Assembly: GCA_001797745.1 (NCBI GenBank)
Contig: MGQF01000067.1
Coordinates: 6,412-42,673, forward strand
Direction of reading: 5' to 3'
Origin: Deltaproteobacteria bacterium RBG_13_52_11
Lineage (GTDB): Bacteria > Desulfobacterota > B13-G15 > RBG-16-54-18
Length of the DNA: 36,262 nt
The notes beneath the pieces are model-generated. The model made no database searches, was not told where the DNA came from, and worked only from the letters and a program-made list of their open reading frames with translations. Shown one piece after another: positions 31,098-36,165 of this stretch. Numbering within the stretch: position 1 is the stretch's first letter; every line of letters starts with the position of its first letter. Made by a program: the position numbers and the translations under genes.

Positions 31098-31590
31098 TGG
31101 GCCTCCTCACTGGTCAAGGTGATCTCCGCAAACCCCATCCGGCGGAACAGCTTTACTGCTGGCGGGGGTTCTGGTTCATGGGCATCGAGGAGTTTCACAT
31201 CAATCAAGATCTCTCTCACTCCCATCTGCCACCACCCCCCCCTCCTGTCTAGAGGATTACCCTCTCGCAGACCTCAGTCAGCATTTCCATGTCATGGGTT
31301 GCAATGACCTTGGCGAACTTCAGGTGGTGTAAAAGGCCGATCAGCCCCCTCCTGGCCGCAGGGTCAACATTGCTCGTGGGCTCGTCCAAGAGCGGGATCT
31401 CCGGCTTCATGGACAGGACGGTTGCGATGGTGATCCTCTGCTTCTCCCTGTAGCTGAGGTGATGCGGGCACCGCTCCCCGTACCCTCCATGCCGACTAGC
31501 CCAGGGCCTTTGTCACCCGCTCCCTAATCTTTTCTTTAGGATGGCCCATGTTCAGGGGCCCGCAGGCGACATCCTCGAAGACTGCTCCTC
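31067..31590 (-). pseudogene. Decayed ECF/ABC ATPase gene (cbiO/ecfA-like). N-terminally truncated, with frameshifts and an in-frame stop.
   Basis: Hand translation of the minus strand gave the following.
- VFEDVACGPLNMGHPKEKIRERVTKAL, then frame breaks near 31500.
- PHHLSYREKQRITIATVLSMKPEIPLLDEPTSNVDPAARRGLIGLL...VIATHDMEMLTEVCERVIL, ending at a TAG at 31249-31251.
- A G8 run, then VVADGSEREILIDVKLLDAHE in another frame.
- No Walker A region, and the LSGGQ signature is degenerate (LSYRE). Confidence 0.7.
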
Positions 31591-31805
31591 AACTGAGGAA
31601 TACTCCAAAGGCTATTTGCCAAATAAACTAACCACTTCAAGATTACTGCGATACCAACGACAAGTCAATGAGATAACAGGCGCCGCAGCTTTCGCTGCTC
31701 CCACACCTCATGAGGCTCCATTCGCCCCGCTGCCAGCCACATGTCCTCTCCTCAACTTTCATTGACACTCAAAAAATAAACTGTTTTCAAGAAGGGCTCG
31801 CCCAC

Positions 31806-31851
31806 TATACCGCCTGAGACAAAATAAAAGCTTCGATGTCTCGGCGGTATA
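31806..31851. repeat. Long imperfect hairpin: a 14-bp stem with one bulge and a 17-nt loop
   Basis: TATACCGCCTGAGAC (31806-31820) pairs with GTCTCGGCGGTATA (31838-31851). T31815 is bulged. No U-tract on either strand. Confidence 0.6.
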
Positions 31852-31917
31852 CCGGGTCTCCTGTTCACAATGCTTGCAAGCCCGCACATAAGATTCTTTC
31901 AGCGGTTGGATGATTGG
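31842..31917. repeat. Left 76-nt inverted repeat (IR-L) flanking the nickel cassette
   Basis: The ungapped alignment to the reverse complement of 36090-36165 gives 61/76 identical by hand count. Confidence 0.8.
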
Positions 31918-31942
31918 ATAAAGAATGAATAAAAACTTTCGC

Positions 31943-31995
31943 TTGACGTATAATCCATATTATGCTACTTATTAAAAATTAGTAGCACTTGGAGA
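31943..31995 (+). promoter_or_regulatory. nikR promoter region with a 7-N11-7 inverted repeat, TGCTACT-N11-AGTAGCA (candidate NikR operator)
   Basis: TATAAT at 31949-31954. The inverted repeat at 31963-31987 lies between the -10 and the GGAGA ribosome-binding site (31991-31995). The AGTAGCAC word recurs twice upstream of the next gene. Confidence 0.4.
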
Positions 31996-31999
31996 ATTT

Positions 32000-32413
32000 A
32001 TGTCAAAAGTTGTAAGATTTGGTGTATCACTAGATCAAGAGTTATTAGAGAAATTTGACCGCCTTGCAAAAGAAAGAAACTATACTTGTCGTTCCGAGGC
32101 ATTTAGGGATTTAATGCGCCAGGAACTGGTTCAAAAACAATGGCAAGAGGGTAAGGAGATCGCCGGTGCCATCACGCTCATTTACGACCATCACAAAAGA
32201 GAGTTGGTAAATAAGCTTATGGATATCCAGCATGATTTCGGCGCGCTGATTATCTCTTCTCAGCACGTTCATTTAGATCACCGCAATTGCCTGGAGATCA
32301 TTGCATTCAAGGGTTCTCCACGAGAGGCACAAAAATTGGGCGACAGCTTGAAATCAGTAAAAGGGGTGAAACATGGAACATTGAGCATGACAACTACTGG
32401 CAAGGATATTTAG
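32000..32413 (+). CDS. nikR: Nickel-responsive transcriptional regulator NikR (ribbon-helix-helix plus ACT-like nickel-binding domain)
   Basis: The N-terminal RFGVSLDQELLEKFD...RSEAFRDLMR RHH domain and HVHLDHRNCLEIIAFKG match the E. coli NikR high-affinity site region (HVHINHDDCLEIAVLKG). Confidence 0.9.
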   Translation: MSKVVRFGVSLDQELLEKFDRLAKERNYTCRSEAFRDLMRQELVQKQWQEGKEIAGAITLIYDHHKRELVNKLMDIQHDFGALIISSQHVHLDHRNCLEIIAFKGSPREAQKLGDSLKSVKGVKHGTLSMTTTGKDI

Positions 32414-32426
32414 GGGTATTATTTTT

Positions 32427-32467
32427 TTGCCCATAAGTAGCACTAATTTAATATTAGTAGCACTAAT
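32427..32467 (+). promoter_or_regulatory. Candidate promoter (TTGCCC-N16-TAATAT) overlapped by two direct AGTAGCACTAAT repeats spaced 20 nt apart
   Basis: The repeats are at 32436-32447 and 32456-32467, both read directly. The first lies in the spacer and the second just after the -10. The second forms the palindrome ATTAGT-AGC-ACTAAT. Confidence 0.35.
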
Positions 32468-32554
32468 GGGATTTACAAAAAAAGGTGTTAGAAGCATGGC
32501 GCGAGAACTCATAACTCTAGGTGGAAAGTATTAAGAAGAAGGAGGAAAATCGTT

Positions 32555-33256
32555 ATGTTTCCAGTACTAGTTTATAAAAAAGAAAAGAGAACCACAATGA
32601 TACACATAATATTTACGAAGCGATTTGCTTTGGTATTAACTCTGTGTTTCATACTGACTCAATGTTTAATTTTTTACGTGGGTGCACACGAGGCTCCTCG
32701 GCTAGAGCCGCGCACACCTGTCGTGATGAAAGAATTCCCCGTAGATCCCGCACTATTCAAAGAGGATGTCAGACCGTATCTACAGAAGATCATTGAGAGA
32801 CATGGTCTTGAGGAGTGGAAGGCGTGTGTCTTGACCAACGAGTTACATCGACACCTGGGGATCTACTCTCTTGTTGGAGCCAAAATGGGGGTCAGGGCAA
32901 GGGAAATCTTAGAAGCCCCTTTTGATACGGTAGATGTCATCTCGTTGGCCGGAAACCAACAACCCCTGAGTTGTATGAACGACGGACTTCAGGTTTCCAC
33001 AGGAGCAAGCCTGGGTCGTGCAGCTATTACCATCGCTCACGTGAACCAGCCTGCGGCGATTTTTCTCTATAGGGATAAAATGGCCACCCTAAGGACAAAA
33101 AAGGAAATAGTGAATCAGATACAGGGAGATATTCAGGCGGCCTTGAAGAAGTATGGAGGATTAAACCCTGAATACTTTGCACATATTAGGAAGCTATCAC
33201 TCGAATACTGGTTAAAATGGGACCGAAAAGAAATTTTCGAGGAGATCATTGATTAA
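32555..33256 (+). CDS. Signal-anchored FmdE/FwdE-like domain protein
   Basis: An N-terminal hydrophobic anchor (FALVLTLCFILTQCLIFYV), then LHRHLGIYSLVGAKMGVRAREIL ... SCMNDGLQVSTGASLGR. This aligns with the FmdE consensus as I recall it: HGHxCPGxxxGxRxxxxAxxxL ... CxxDxxQxxTGCTxGK. GGAGG lies 9 nt upstream of the ATG. Confidence 0.6.
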   Translation: MFPVLVYKKEKRTTMIHIIFTKRFALVLTLCFILTQCLIFYVGAHEAPRLEPRTPVVMKEFPVDPALFKEDVRPYLQKIIERHGLEEWKACVLTNELHRHLGIYSLVGAKMGVRAREILEAPFDTVDVISLAGNQQPLSCMNDGLQVSTGASLGRAAITIAHVNQPAAIFLYRDKMATLRTKKEIVNQIQGDIQAALKKYGGLNPEYFAHIRKLSLEYWLKWDRKEIFEEIID

Positions 33257-33391
33257 CATTATATGCTGGCCTTGCGATCAGTTTTAAATGCTGTTAGGGT
33301 ATAAGAGGTTGCTATCGGTACTAATTCGGATGCGAATGATTCAGCAGCTTTAACCTTTGTCTACACATTTTAGATTGAACAAGGAGAAGAA

Positions 33392-34078
33392 ATGCATATA
33401 CCAGACGGATATTTGGGGCCGGCGTCATGCGGTTTTTTCTATGCGCTGATGCTGCCGATATGGACAGTGGCTACCAGGATAGTTAAAAAAACCCTTAAGG
33501 CAAAGCAGGTCCCCCTGTTGGCAATAGGCGCTGCCTTTAGCTTTGTCATCATGATGTTCAATGTCCCCATACCAGGAGGTTCAACCGGGCATGCAGTCGG
33601 GGGTGTTTTAGTGGCCATCCTTCTTGGGCCGTGGGCGGCATGCATCGCAATAACCGTTGCCTTGGTCGTTCAAGCACTATTATTCGGAGACGGTGGTATT
33701 ACGGCGATAGGGGCGAATTGTTTTAACATGGCCTTTGTGTTACCTTTTATAGGATACTATCTCTACAAGGCCCTGAGTTATAACGCCCCCCTTGATTCAA
33801 ACAGAAGGGTGCTGGCGGCAGGGGTGGCTGGTTATATTGGCATTAATGTGGCTGCCTTTTTAGCAGGGGTTGAATTCGGGTTGCAGCCGCTGTTGCACCA
33901 TACTGCTGATGGCCAGGCCCTTTACTGTCCTTACGGATTGAATATCGCGGTGCCGGCAATGGCAGGCGAGCATCTCTTGATATTCGGCTGGGTCGAGGCT
34001 ATTGTAACCGCCCTCGTGATAAAATTTTTACAGAAGCAAGCGCCCGAGCTTCTTAAAGAAAAAAAAGGGAGGGGATAA
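33392..34078 (+). CDS. cbiM: ECF-transporter metal-specific S component, CbiM/NikM
   Basis: The hallmark N-terminus MHIPDGYL and about 6-7 TM helices. The NikR context favours nickel specificity. Confidence 0.9.
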   Translation: MHIPDGYLGPASCGFFYALMLPIWTVATRIVKKTLKAKQVPLLAIGAAFSFVIMMFNVPIPGGSTGHAVGGVLVAILLGPWAACIAITVALVVQALLFGDGGITAIGANCFNMAFVLPFIGYYLYKALSYNAPLDSNRRVLAAGVAGYIGINVAAFLAGVEFGLQPLLHHTADGQALYCPYGLNIAVPAMAGEHLLIFGWVEAIVTALVIKFLQKQAPELLKEKKGRG

Positions 34079-34080
34079 CT

Positions 34081-34416
34081 ATGAAAATTGCGACTAAATT
34101 GTGGATAGGATTAGGTGCGTTGATCGTCCTTTCTCCCCTCGGGTTATTGCTCCCCGAACATTTTAAGGCAGGTGCTGCATGGGGTGAGTGGGGAATGGAT
34201 GAGATAAAGGAGCTCGCAGGATATGTCCCCAAGGGGTTAGAAAAACTCGCGCCATTATGGAATGCGCCTCTACCTGATTATGCCTTGAAGGGATGGGAGG
34301 AAAAAGGTTTATCGCATTTAAGTTTTGCGTATATTATATCGGCCATAGTAGGTATGGCCATTACATGCATTGCGGTATTGCTTATAGGCAGGCTGTTGGC
34401 CAGGAAGGGCGATTAG
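34081..34416 (+). CDS. PDGLE-domain small membrane protein (CbiN/NikN-equivalent accessory subunit)
   Basis: Two terminal TM helices flank a loop with AWGEWG and a YVPKGLEKL (PDGLE-like) motif. It starts 2 nt after the cbiM stop. Confidence 0.7.
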   Translation: MKIATKLWIGLGALIVLSPLGLLLPEHFKAGAAWGEWGMDEIKELAGYVPKGLEKLAPLWNAPLPDYALKGWEEKGLSHLSFAYIISAIVGMAITCIAVLLIGRLLARKGD

Positions 34417-34418
34417 TA

Positions 34419-35264
34419 GTGTTTAAAAACAATAATTTCATAGAGCGCTCAATCATGGGCGCTCTATCTTTTTTAAAGGAATCGATCTTTGCTGAAGAAT
34501 ATGCATCACGGAAAAGTTTTTTGCAATCGTTAGATCCAAGGATCAAGACCTTAACCTTCCTCCTCTTCATCATGCAAGTACTTCTTGCCAAGAATCTCTT
34601 CATTTTGTTATGCCTTTATGCGTTATGTTTACTGCTGACGCTTTGTTCTAAGATCAACCTGGGATTTTTCTTGAAACGGACGTGGATATTTATACCCCTG
34701 TTTTCGCTCCTGATCGCCATTCCTGCCTTGTTTAATATCGTTACCCCCGGGGAACCGTTCATTACTTTCAAGATAGCCGGACAAAAACTTAGTATTACCC
34801 GCCAAGGATTATTTGGAGCACTATTTTTTATTATGCGCGTGATAACTTCCGTATCGTTTGTTGTTCTTTTAAGTGTTACGACGAAGCATTTTGAGCTGCT
34901 CAAGGTTTTACGTTTTTTTAGGATACCACAAGTCTTTGTGATGACCATCGGAATGTGCTACCGATATATTTATCTTTTTGTTGAGATAATCGAAAACACC
35001 TATCTCGCCATCAAGAGTCGGGTAGGAATAACGGTTCACTACAAAAAAGGACAGCATATTGTTGCGTGGAACATCGCCTATCTGTGGAATCGCTCGTACC
35101 AACTCAATGAAGAGGTGTATAAGGCAATGCTTTCAAGGGGATATAGGGGAGAGCCGGTTGCCATGAATGATTTTAAAATCAAACCAAAAGATGGGTTGTG
35201 GTTATGTTTAGTCGTAATAATTTCTGCTTCGATGATATATTTAAATTATCGGCTAAAAGTATGA
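34419..35264 (+). CDS. cbiQ: ECF-transporter T component, CbiQ
   Basis: LDPRIKTLTFLLF start of the CbiQ fold, about 5 TM helices, and C-terminal AMLSRGY. The ORF-track start at 34293 would overlap the preceding gene by 124 nt. I prefer the GTG at 34419 (AGGAAGG upstream). The ATG at 34455 is also possible. Confidence 0.8.
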   Translation: MFKNNNFIERSIMGALSFLKESIFAEEYASRKSFLQSLDPRIKTLTFLLFIMQVLLAKNLFILLCLYALCLLLTLCSKINLGFFLKRTWIFIPLFSLLIAIPALFNIVTPGEPFITFKIAGQKLSITRQGLFGALFFIMRVITSVSFVVLLSVTTKHFELLKVLRFFRIPQVFVMTIGMCYRYIYLFVEIIENTYLAIKSRVGITVHYKKGQHIVAWNIAYLWNRSYQLNEEVYKAMLSRGYRGEPVAMNDFKIKPKDGLWLCLVVIISASMIYLNYRLKV

Positions 35265-35273
35265 AAGGGTATT

Positions 35274-36089
35274 ATGGATAATCTAATCTTTGAATTAAAG
35301 GATGTCTATTTCGCGTATCTTGGGAAATATCCCGCCTTATGCGGCGTAGATATCAATATCCGGCAGGGAGAACGGATAACGATTATCGGCGCAAACGGCT
35401 CTGGGAAATCAACGCTTTTACATATGTTGGATGGGCTTATTTTCCCTGACAAAGGCACCATTAAAGCCTTTGGCAGGGAATTAAAAGAAGGTCGCTTTAG
35501 CGATGAAAACTTCTCAATGGATTTTAGAAAGAAAGTAGGATTGGTTTTTCAGAATTCCGATGTCCAGTTGTTCTGCCCAACCGTAAAAGAAGATATTGTC
35601 TTCGGCCCGCTCCAGTTAAGAGTTGGTAAAAGGGAGATTGAGAGGCGTCTCGACGAGCTTATTAATATTCTAAACATTAAAGATTTATTGGATAGATCCC
35701 CGCATCAGTTAAGTATCGGTGAAAAACGCAAAGTTGCGATAGCATCGACTTTGATGATTGATCCCGATGTTCTTATCGTGGATGAACCGACATCTGGATT
35801 AGATCCTTTGACAACCAGGCACATCATTGACATGCTCCTGCAGGCCAATGTCGCTGGTAAGACAATCATCACCTCTACACACGATCTGCATATCGTTGAG
35901 GAGATATCCGACGTGGTTTACGTATTCGGCCACGAAAAGAGAATAGTAAGGTCCGGCAGTCCGCAGGAAATCTTGGAAGACAACCAATTGCTTGAGGTCA
36001 ACAACCTCATACATATACATAGCCACAGGCATAAAGGGAGAACACACTCTCACCCCCATCTGCATTTATATCATCATGATGAAGGTTAA
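35274..36089 (+). CDS. cbiO: ECF-transporter ATPase CbiO/NikO with a His-rich C-terminal tail
   Basis: Walker A GANGSGKST, signature LSIGEKRK, Walker B LIVDEPTSGLD, and switch THDLH. The tail reads HIHSHRHKGRTHSHPHLHLYHHDEG. Confidence 0.9.
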   Translation: MDNLIFELKDVYFAYLGKYPALCGVDINIRQGERITIIGANGSGKSTLLHMLDGLIFPDKGTIKAFGRELKEGRFSDENFSMDFRKKVGLVFQNSDVQLFCPTVKEDIVFGPLQLRVGKREIERRLDELINILNIKDLLDRSPHQLSIGEKRKVAIASTLMIDPDVLIVDEPTSGLDPLTTRHIIDMLLQANVAGKTIITSTHDLHIVEEISDVVYVFGHEKRIVRSGSPQEILEDNQLLEVNNLIHIHSHRHKGRTHSHPHLHLYHHDEG

Positions 36090-36165
36090 CCAATTATCTC
36101 ACCGCTGAAAAAATCTTACGTGCTGGTTCGCAAGCATTGTGAGCAAGAGGCTCGGCATGCCGCTG
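36090..36165. repeat. Right 76-nt inverted repeat (IR-R) flanking the nickel cassette
   Basis: It begins at the base immediately after the cbiO TAA. Its reverse complement aligns ungapped with 31842-31917 (61/76). Confidence 0.8.

Follow-up and report, generated by a model that had tools for sequence, protein, structure and literature searches.

A putatively exported FmdE-like protein encoded in a nik cassette of Deltaproteobacteria bacterium RBG_13_52_11, a candidate periplasmic accessory of nickel uptake

In a stretch of 36,262 nucleotides from Deltaproteobacteria bacterium RBG_13_52_11 (contig MGQF01000067.1, positions 6,412 to 42,673 of the forward strand; hereafter the window), an open reading frame (ORF) lies between nikR, which encodes the nickel-responsive repressor, and cbiM, which encodes the S component of an energy-coupling factor (ECF) importer. 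Our results single out its product as a candidate periplasmic accessory of nickel uptake, predicted from its sequence and built on an unexpected fold, that of FmdE. The protein carries a predicted export signal and keeps most of the known metal ligands of FmdE, and its wider family is strongly enriched beside nickel-uptake genes, namely those of NikR, TonB-dependent receptors, DUF4198 proteins, CbiMQO and HupE/UreJ.

The first-pass annotation had recognised an FmdE-like domain in this ORF, quoting the segments LHRHLG..VGAKMGVRAREIL and SCMNDGLQVSTGASLGR. Both segments are present, and the family assignment is correct, since profile and fold searches each return FmdE. The Pfam profile PF02663 matches the ORF with an E-value of 5.2e-12 and 46.4 bits (gathering score 22.9), over positions 1-132 of its 133, i.e., above the gathering threshold across the whole domain. 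The AlphaFold2 model, built on 20 homologues, has a mean pLDDT (predicted local distance difference test) of 83.4, with values of 87-97 in the core, and shows the FmdE core, preceded by a helical segment specific to the family and, at the N-terminus, by a flexible tail. When this model is compared to the PDB with Foldseek, E-values below 0.01 are obtained for FmdE structures only: 2gvi (E 1.5e-7; template modelling scores 0.54/0.58), 2glz (E 5e-6) and 3d00 (E 5.5e-3), the next match being at E 0.26. The fold search was needed, as the family profile run against PDB sequences retrieves 2gvi alone, and weakly (E 0.064).

The FmdE core harbors a solvent-accessible, tetrahedral metal site, whose ligands are His15, His17, Cys19 and Cys55 in 2glz, with mixed Zn/Ni occupancy, and His16, His18, Cys20 and Cys61 in 2gvi, where a ligand of unknown nature lies 1.8 Å from Cys61 (Axelrod et al., 2010; PMC2954224). 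These ligands were mapped from the Pfam register, a profile alignment to 2gvi and a canonical FmdE of the same genome (FHGHSCPG...ACGVDALQCLSGCTFGKG); as MAFFT split the H-x-H motif when the canonical FmdE was included, the Pfam profile coordinates and the gap-free G94/M97 register were used instead. In the numbering of the 219-residue form, used throughout, the two histidines are kept as H84 and H86 and the second cysteine as C126, while G88 stands in place of the first cysteine. Similarly, A137 stands where FmdE has the cysteine of its TGC motif. Compared to the canonical FmdE of the same genome (FHGHSCPG...SGCTFGKG), HGHxC is thus changed to HRHLG and TGC to TGA, so that the earlier claim that two usual FmdE cysteines are missing is borne out. 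Twelve residues, H84, H86, G88, C126, D129, Q132, E73, E82, K96, M97, D110 and W205, do not vary in any of the 156 distinct domain sequences from related loci, and all of them are kept in the window's protein. The four-ligand site of FmdE is therefore reduced to three ligands (H84, H86 and C126), with Gly at the fourth position throughout the subfamily. As three of the four known ligands are kept, metal binding is the natural reading, rather than a degenerate domain, and the three ligands with the fixed Gly read as a defined subfamily signature, not as decay. Reversible metal binding and hand-over, or the binding of a metal still carrying part of its chelator, would be expected to involve a site of this kind, with three ligands and one position open.

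Two start codons are available to this gene, and either of them gives an identical leader architecture. ATG 32597 is the start conserved among relatives and yields 219 residues, homologues being almost all 215-219 residues long. ATG 32555, which opens the longest ORF, is specific to the window's genome: in the upstream DNA alignment, an AAC is found at the same position in an 84%-identical relative, L084 (L### and P0024 are labels of related loci). The strong ribosome-binding site previously ascribed to the gene is present, as a GGAGG located 8 nt 5' of ATG 32555, but this ATG is the non-conserved one and relatives start at 32597.

The leader is probably a cleavable Sec signal leaving His31 at the N-terminus, rather than a permanent anchor, and the mature protein, of about 189 residues, is probably soluble in the periplasm. 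The first-pass annotation had proposed an N-terminal membrane anchor with the domain facing outside the cell; the export signal stands, whereas the leader is probably removed, VGA being followed by His. A30 and H31 are conserved at 90% or more within an otherwise variable region, and, of the 138 family ORFs having a hydrophobic core, 116 have [AGSC]-His after it. Among neighboring proteins whose leader can be recognised (L001-L080), the same junction is found in 26/26 DUF4198 proteins and 9/9 small transthyretin-like proteins (CarbPepReg-TM, with a C-terminal transmembrane segment), but in only 3/57 TonB-dependent receptors of the same loci. An N-terminal His common to these periplasmic components (FmdE-like, DUF4198 and transthyretin-like) suggests a shared metal-binding mode. 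As to the destination, the window's genome encodes two TonB-dependent receptors, which indicates that an outer membrane is present and that the protein would be exported to the periplasm.

The protein can thus be compared with the FmdE/FwdE proteins (PF02663; 2glz, 2gvi, 3d00), with which it shares the alpha+beta core, the H-x-H, C-x-x-D-x-x-Q and T-G motifs and three of the four Zn/Ni ligands. It differs from canonical FmdE, which is cytoplasmic, by its predicted export signal, by the Gly replacing the fourth ligand Cys and the Ala or Gly replacing, in the family, the TGC Cys, by the lack of the C-terminal treble-clef zinc finger and by an extra conserved N-terminal segment (R39...P48..P51..F54, E73-W74). 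Its gene is also differently surrounded, by nikR and cbiMNQO instead of fmd/fwd or Mo/W enzyme genes, canonical FmdE being linked to Mo/W enzymes. Two canonical FmdE genes, of the cytoplasmic type, are present in the same genome (contig C98, 21646-21948, and contig C32, 21684-22058; L081 and L082). HGHSCPG, SGCT and Cys-x2-Cys pairs at the C-terminus are found in L081. The genome thus has the exported form in addition to canonical FmdE, not in its place.

A pattern scan of one genome per species reveals relatives in 545 genomes, mainly of Desulfobacterota, but also of Nitrospirae, Aminicenantes, Verrucomicrobia, Bacteroidota, Zixibacteria, Acidobacteria and Elusimicrobia. When 1.84 billion representatives are searched exhaustively with phmmer, 213 clusters (50% identity) are obtained at E<=1e-30, most of them of 470-515 residues and matching at their C-terminus. 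In these relatives of about 495 residues, the signal peptide is followed by a domain resembling inosine-uridine nucleoside hydrolases (PF01156, E 7.8e-27), in which the DTDxxxDD motif is kept (DTDMALDD), and then by the FmdE-like domain. They are annotated either as 'FmdE family protein' or as 'pyrimidine-specific ribonucleoside hydrolase', a Joint Genome Institute (JGI) label that results from the fusion with the nucleoside-hydrolase-like domain. Stand-alone forms such as that of the window are a minority.

The closest relatives of the window's protein are such fusions, predicted to be exported and of uncharacterised function. Their C-terminal domain is 50-68% identical to it, with all invariant residues in common, and the signal peptide with its A-H junction is the same, as is the linkage to NikR, TonB receptor and CbiMQO genes. 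The signature of the fused family, E-x-H-[RG]-H-L-G ... S-C-x-N-D-G-x-Q-x-x-T-G-[AG]-[ST], is also found in the window's protein, which differs in lacking the PF01156-like domain of about 290 residues, its signal peptide being joined directly to the pre-FmdE segment. In a tree of 68 domains (IQ-TREE), the stand-alone forms nest inside the fused family, with four architecture changes on the best tree, at least three of which are forced by well-supported branches; a single origin of the stand-alone forms was therefore rejected. The window's domain pairs with that of L084 (Shimodaira-Hasegawa-like approximate likelihood ratio test, SH-aLRT, 98); the grouping of this pair with the main stand-alone clade is less well supported (86). 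The window's form is a derivative devoid of the nucleoside-hydrolase-like domain that most family members carry. Another stand-alone form, L008, is a plain internal deletion of the fused form: it begins with AHAHT like its fused sisters and then goes straight to the pre-FmdE segment. Gene fission, with the nucleoside-hydrolase-like domain encoded elsewhere, was rejected, as no PF01156 gene was found in the window's genome, a result that is not absolute for a genome 86% complete; no DUF4198 gene was found there either.

To describe the surroundings of the family, 163 non-redundant related loci were scanned with hidden Markov models built from recurrent neighbor clusters and checked against Pfam (TonB_dep_Rec + Plug, TP_methylase, DUF4198, AA_permease), and neighbors were counted within 6 kb in the 82 loci having at least 3 kb on both flanks (full-context loci). 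A nickel-uptake-type gene is found in 70 of these 82 loci (85%). Among all the neighbors counted, TonB-dependent receptor genes are the most frequent (66 loci, 80%), followed by genes of exported TP_methylase-fold proteins (23 loci), DUF4198 (22 loci, 27%), NikR (13 loci, 16%), CbiM/CbiQ of the ECF type (9 loci, 11%) and HupE/UreJ (1 locus). As a genome normally carries about one nikR and one or two cbiM, either of them would be expected within 6 kb of a random gene in well under 1% of cases. In most members, the FmdE-like domain is fused to the nucleoside-hydrolase-like domain, and the gene is located beside TonB-dependent receptor and DUF4198 genes.

The link with ECF genes recurs in independent lineages. 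In the Verrucomicrobia locus L077, the order is nikR, TonB receptor, FmdE-like, cbi(MN), cbiQ and cbiO, and L064 has the same order without nikR; the genes of both overlap or are separated by 6-10 nt. As encoded, these two operons make up a full route from the outer membrane to the cytoplasm, with the FmdE-like protein as its sole soluble component predicted in the periplasm. L032, from a groundwater deltaproteobacterium, and L084 share with the window the order FmdE-like, CbiM, PDGLE, CbiQ, CbiO. Adjacency to CbiM, CbiQ or CbiO genes is found for stand-alone forms (L032, L061, L064, L077, L079) and for fused ones (L034, L059, L074, L104, L111, L116). In L089, three genes of the HupE/UreJ family, a family of nickel permeases (PMC2868824), lie directly upstream of the FmdE-like gene. 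Finally, no cobalamin riboswitch was detected by an Rfam scan of nine TonB-receptor-type loci (143 kb), which links these loci to nickel and not to B12; with the frequent NikR genes, this led us to drop a cobalt/B12 reading.

Two other kinds of genes are recurrent in these loci. Exported TP_methylase-fold proteins (PF00590, E 1e-32), with signal peptides, are encoded between the TonB receptor and the DUF4198 or fused FmdE-like genes in 25 of 80 genome-derived loci (L003, 2842-3750, and 24 others). Export is odd for a family of cytoplasmic enzymes dependent on S-adenosylmethionine, and a tetrapyrrole-like or other complex nickel ligand may be involved. Receptor-type operons recurrently end with the gene of an APC-family amino-acid permease (PF13520), in 17 of the 80 genome-derived loci (many of L002-L048 and L091-L113); this permease may be the inner-membrane importer of these operons, perhaps with a nickel-amino-acid complex as its cargo.

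In the window, the gene order is nikR, FmdE-like, cbiM, PDGLE, cbiQ and cbiO (Table 1). A complete Ni/Co ECF set is thus encoded in one operon: an S component with a Met-His N-terminus, encoded by the sole cbiM of the genome, a small N-type partner, which aligns with the final third of the fused CbiM model NF005598, a T component and an ATPase. No TonB-dependent receptor gene is found inside the cassette. The C-terminal tail of CbiO is His-rich (HIHSHRHKGRTHSHPHLHLYHHDEG, 36012-36089), which is unusual among ECF ATPases and resembles cytoplasmic nickel-handling proteins.

The repeated words noticed earlier in front of the FmdE-like gene, and said to occur also at the nikR promoter, are confirmed. 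AGTAGCAC has three exact copies in the 36 kb (at 31981, 32436 and 32456), all around nikR, for an expected count of 0.23, and three copies were reached in none of 100 shuffles. In front of the FmdE-like gene, the two copies are directly repeated and do not form a palindrome. In L084, the nikR promoter has GCTAT-N-AGTAACAC at the same position, and the intergenic region that follows nikR, in front of an outer-membrane protein gene, has GTAGCAC-N13-ATGACAC, with which the 32436-32463 region of the window aligns. GTAACAC-like half-sites were reportedly proposed as NikR boxes by Rodionov and colleagues in 2006. With these NikR-box-like words, a single cassette and no terminator-like site in 31750-33450, which spans nikR to cbiM, the proposed co-regulation of the FmdE-like gene with the transporter is well supported by the sequence, and Ni-NikR would repress their transcription through the candidate AGTAGCAC sites. 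The exact pattern GCTACT-N9-13-AGTAGC, when searched in the other loci, matched only the window's own genome. As operator words differ between lineages, no cross-lineage NikR motif was built.

Comparison with L084 also gives insights on how this arrangement may have arisen. In L084, the second operator heads an outer-membrane beta-barrel gene, a cbiM fragment, the FmdE-like gene and cbiM-PDGLE-cbiQ-cbiO. The barrel, of 329 residues (weak PF13557, Phenol_MetA_deg), and the cbiM fragment, of 66 residues, occupy positions 5810-7019 of L084, between nikR and the FmdE-like gene, and are also found in L085-L087; the window has neither. In its intergenic region, the L084 operator region is joined to the L084 stretch located just before the FmdE-like gene, so that the operator now lies directly in front of the window's FmdE-like gene. 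The cassette has a GC content of 42-48%, compared to 54-58% over the preceding 10 kb, and lies between 78-nt inverted repeats. Relative to the radical-SAM/TPM/LemA genes on its flanks, its orientation is opposite to that seen in L084, and only 3 of 41 related genomes carry its FmdE-like gene. All these features suggest a mobile or recently acquired unit, with inversion or mobility through the repeats. Just outside the left repeat, a short ORF on the reverse strand (31249-31410; LLDEPTSNVDPAARRGL...) encodes only the portion of an ABC ATPase that holds the Walker B motif and the D-loop, and appears to be a decayed second cbiO/ecfA copy.

Table 1. Coordinates, within the window, of the features of the nik cassette and of the FmdE-like gene.
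Feature	Position	Strand	Evidence or remark
Left arm of 78-nt inverted repeat bracketing the whole cassette	31844..31921	.	81% complementary to 36086-36163
Candidate NikR operator at the nikR promoter	31962..31988	+	ATGCTACT-N11-AGTAGCAC, imperfect palindrome
nikR, nickel-responsive repressor, 137 aa	32000..32413	+	NCBIfam NF003381 E 6.7e-56; Pfam NikR_C + RHH_1
Candidate NikR operator of the operon downstream, with two exact copies of AGTAGCAC, 20 nt apart	32436..32463	+	nikR/FmdE-like intergenic
FmdE-like gene, longest ORF, 233 aa	32555..33256	+	between nikR and cbiM
Conserved start and predicted Sec signal peptide (M1-A30 of the 219-aa form)	32597..32686	+	K8/R9, hydrophobic core, V-G-A
Predicted cleavage	before H31 (32687-32689)	+	V-G-A then H31-E32
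FmdE alpha+beta core domain	32843..33238	+	Pfam PF02663, residues 97-228 of the 233-aa ORF; Foldseek 2gvi, 2glz, 3d00
H84-R-H86-L-G88 motif	32846..32860	+	Pfam coordinates; ligand list PMC2954224
S-C126-M-N-D129-G-L-Q-V-S-T-G-A137-S-L-G-R motif	32969..33019	+	profile alignment to 2gvi
cbiM/nikM, ECF S component	33392..34078	+	PF01891 E 7.7e-64; NF008873 E 1.8e-108; N-terminus MHIPDG
Small membrane component with PDGLE domain (NikN/NikL-type)	34081..34416	+	PF13190 E 1.4e-10
cbiQ/nikQ, T component, start approximate	34422..35264	+	TIGR02454 E 3.3e-45; PF02361
cbiO/nikO ATPase, His-rich C-terminal tail	35274..36089	+	PF00005 E 8e-31; TIGR04521
Right arm of 78-nt inverted repeat	36086..36163	.	

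What could be the role of this protein? We give even chances to a protein that binds or hands off nickel in the periplasm and thereby feeds the ECF importer. The leader would be removed by signal peptidase after VGA, making His31 the new N-terminus, and the mature protein would bind Ni(II) at H84, H86 and C126, with an open or exchangeable coordination position. The site could perhaps be completed by the N-terminal His31 or its amine, or by an invariant carboxylate (E73, E82 or D129). The protein would capture nickel that has crossed the outer membrane and deliver it to the Met1-His2 site of CbiM/NikM, this N-terminal site being the metal site of the ECF S component. It would thus act as a soluble accessory, in a role comparable to that of NikK, and its expression would be under NikR control, through Ni-NikR repression.

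The comparison with the known accessory components of nickel ECF systems is instructive. NikK, which we take to be DUF4198/COG5266, is, in NikKMLQO systems, a periplasmic protein bearing a signal peptide, as is predicted for the FmdE-like protein, and encoded, like it, beside nikM/cbiM, and the DUF4198 neighbors of related loci share with the FmdE-like family a His directly after the predicted cleavage site. Its fold is however unrelated, and no DUF4198 (PF10670) match is found in the FmdE-like protein at E<=1, so that an identity with NikK was rejected. NikK/DUF4198 and FmdE-like proteins are encoded side by side in many loci, which indicates that they are not simple substitutes for each other. 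CbiN, NikN and NikL are encoded, like the FmdE-like protein, in the same operon as a Ni/Co ECF S component, but they are proteins integral to the membrane, and identity with NikL or NikN was also rejected, as this role is already filled by the PDGLE protein. The suggestion that an FmdE-fold partner would differ from NikK and NikL is therefore upheld, with no DUF4198 match and with the PDGLE domain on a separate gene downstream. NikK and NikL themselves have been described, from comparative genomics, only as 'additional components' (PMC2868824; PMC11247825), and our literature search found no paper linking FmdE-like proteins to nickel uptake, NikR, TonB or the periplasm.

Several points weigh against a binding or hand-off protein dedicated to the ECF importer. 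ECF transporters work without soluble binding proteins, and components of the M, N-type, Q and O kinds are already encoded in the operon. The site has lost one of its four metal ligands, more Zn than Ni was bound in 2glz, the candidate ligands are brought together by homology, and the ligand found near the equivalent Cys of 2gvi hints at catalysis rather than metal transfer. The leader regions and the cleavage site were read by eye from the sequence. The gene, found in 3/41 related genomes, is dispensable for the lineage. At the family level, ECF genes are present in only 9/82 full-context loci, which means that the family is not an obligate ECF subunit. In addition, the stand-alone clade nearest to the window has mixed contexts (Mo-hydroxylase, Hdr-like, CdhC/CooC, HupE and ECF): L170 and P0024 lie inside Mo-hydroxylase operons, L088 and L171 between Fer4 and CCG (Hdr-like) genes, and L173 near genes of CdhC and a CooC-like ATPase, while L172, like L028, L043 and L054, has uninformative surroundings. 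The operons of L170 and P0024, in which stand-alone exported FmdE-like genes are found (at 6001-6648 in L170), are of the xanthine/aldehyde-dehydrogenase type (FAD_binding_5, Fer2_2, MoCoBD, UbiD); they have no obvious nickel link and recall that of canonical FmdE with Mo/W enzymes.

The first-pass annotation had seen in the gene a possible accessory component of the Nik/Cbi ECF system and had named co-occurrence of its homologues with Ni/Co transporters as a check. Part of this holds: the gene shares one cassette with nikR and the ECF genes, in an order that recurs, and ECF adjacency is found in independent lineages; but the family as a whole is not ECF-specific. It is best described as an exported metal-site module, mostly but not solely involved in nickel acquisition, for which 'dedicated ECF subunit' is too narrow. 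A broader reading can be put forward tentatively, and with less confidence than the ECF-feeding role: the exported FmdE-like domain, alone or fused, could be the signature of an undescribed periplasmic step of nickel acquisition, located downstream of NikR-controlled TonB receptors. It would take the nickel, or strip the imported chelate, and pass the metal to CbiMQO, HupE/UreJ or an APC permease, the N-terminal His being part of a metal relay with the DUF4198 and transthyretin-like neighbors.

Alternatively, the protein could be a periplasmic enzyme, or the subunit of one, that acts on an imported chelate of nickel (nickelophore or other Ni-organic complex) and frees the metal, a possibility that we consider unlikely but worth stating. 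Cys126 would be the nucleophile, beside a catalytic metal bound by the two histidines, and the window's copy would be the minimal catalytic module, joined elsewhere by the nucleoside-hydrolase-like domain, the exported tetrapyrrole-methylase-fold protein and DUF4198. The ligand 1.8 Å from Cys61 of 2gvi would agree with a thioester, and a large groove houses the site (PMC2954224). Most relatives are fused to a nucleoside-hydrolase-like domain that keeps DTDxxxDD, the co-encoded TonB-dependent receptors belong to a class that usually imports chelates, not free ions, and exported TP_methylase-fold proteins (25/80) and the APC permease (17/80) are co-encoded as well. The window, however, fits this scheme poorly, as its genome is without PF01156 or DUF4198 gene, its cassette is without receptor, and the adjoining ECF importer takes up ionic Ni/Co. 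Besides, no substrate can be named, and the loss of one of four metal ligands would be unusual for a structural or catalytic Zn site.

Another explanation, which we find still more doubtful, is that of a general exported maturation factor (metal, cofactor or redox), not specifically involved in nickel import, its position being due to shuffling on a mobile nickel cassette. The Mo-hydroxylase and Hdr-like contexts of L170, P0024, L088 and L171 would be in agreement with it, as would the link of canonical FmdE to Mo/W enzymes and the lack of any transporter near L172, L028, L043 and L054; the inverted repeats, inversion and lower GC of the cassette, and the patchy distribution of the gene among relatives, are also what shuffling would produce. 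Chance placement nevertheless accounts poorly for an FmdE-like gene found directly before cbiM in distant phyla, with gaps of 6-10 nt or overlaps, for NikR within 6 kb in 16% of loci when genomes have about one nikR each, and for a gene that, in both the window and L084, sits inside a unit headed by a NikR-box-like operator. Finally, a decaying, non-functional remnant of a fused gene, to which the nesting of stand-alone forms inside the fused family, the repeated architecture changes and the cbiM pseudogene fragment right beside the gene in L084 (a sign of recent rearrangement) could point, is highly improbable, since the frame is intact with every family-invariant residue, the signal peptide with its A-H junction and a strong ribosome-binding site, and since full-length 219-residue orthologues with 75-94% identity are found in several metagenomes.

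To our knowledge, the route of nickel from the outer membrane to the inner-membrane importers is poorly known outside Helicobacter and NikA systems. The family described here is conserved and predicted to be exported, has metal-site residues and is tied to four kinds of nickel genes, those of NikR, of TonB receptors with DUF4198, of CbiMQO and of HupE/UreJ. The window offers its simplest form, a single mature domain of 189 residues ahead of a transporter cassette, which makes a convenient construct. We know of no activity for the FmdE fold, although structures have been available since 2006, and of no function for canonical FmdE either. If our proposal is true, it would give the first functional handle on this fold, as a domain handling nickel or other metals, and it would correct the misleading automatic label of 'pyrimidine-specific ribonucleoside hydrolase'.

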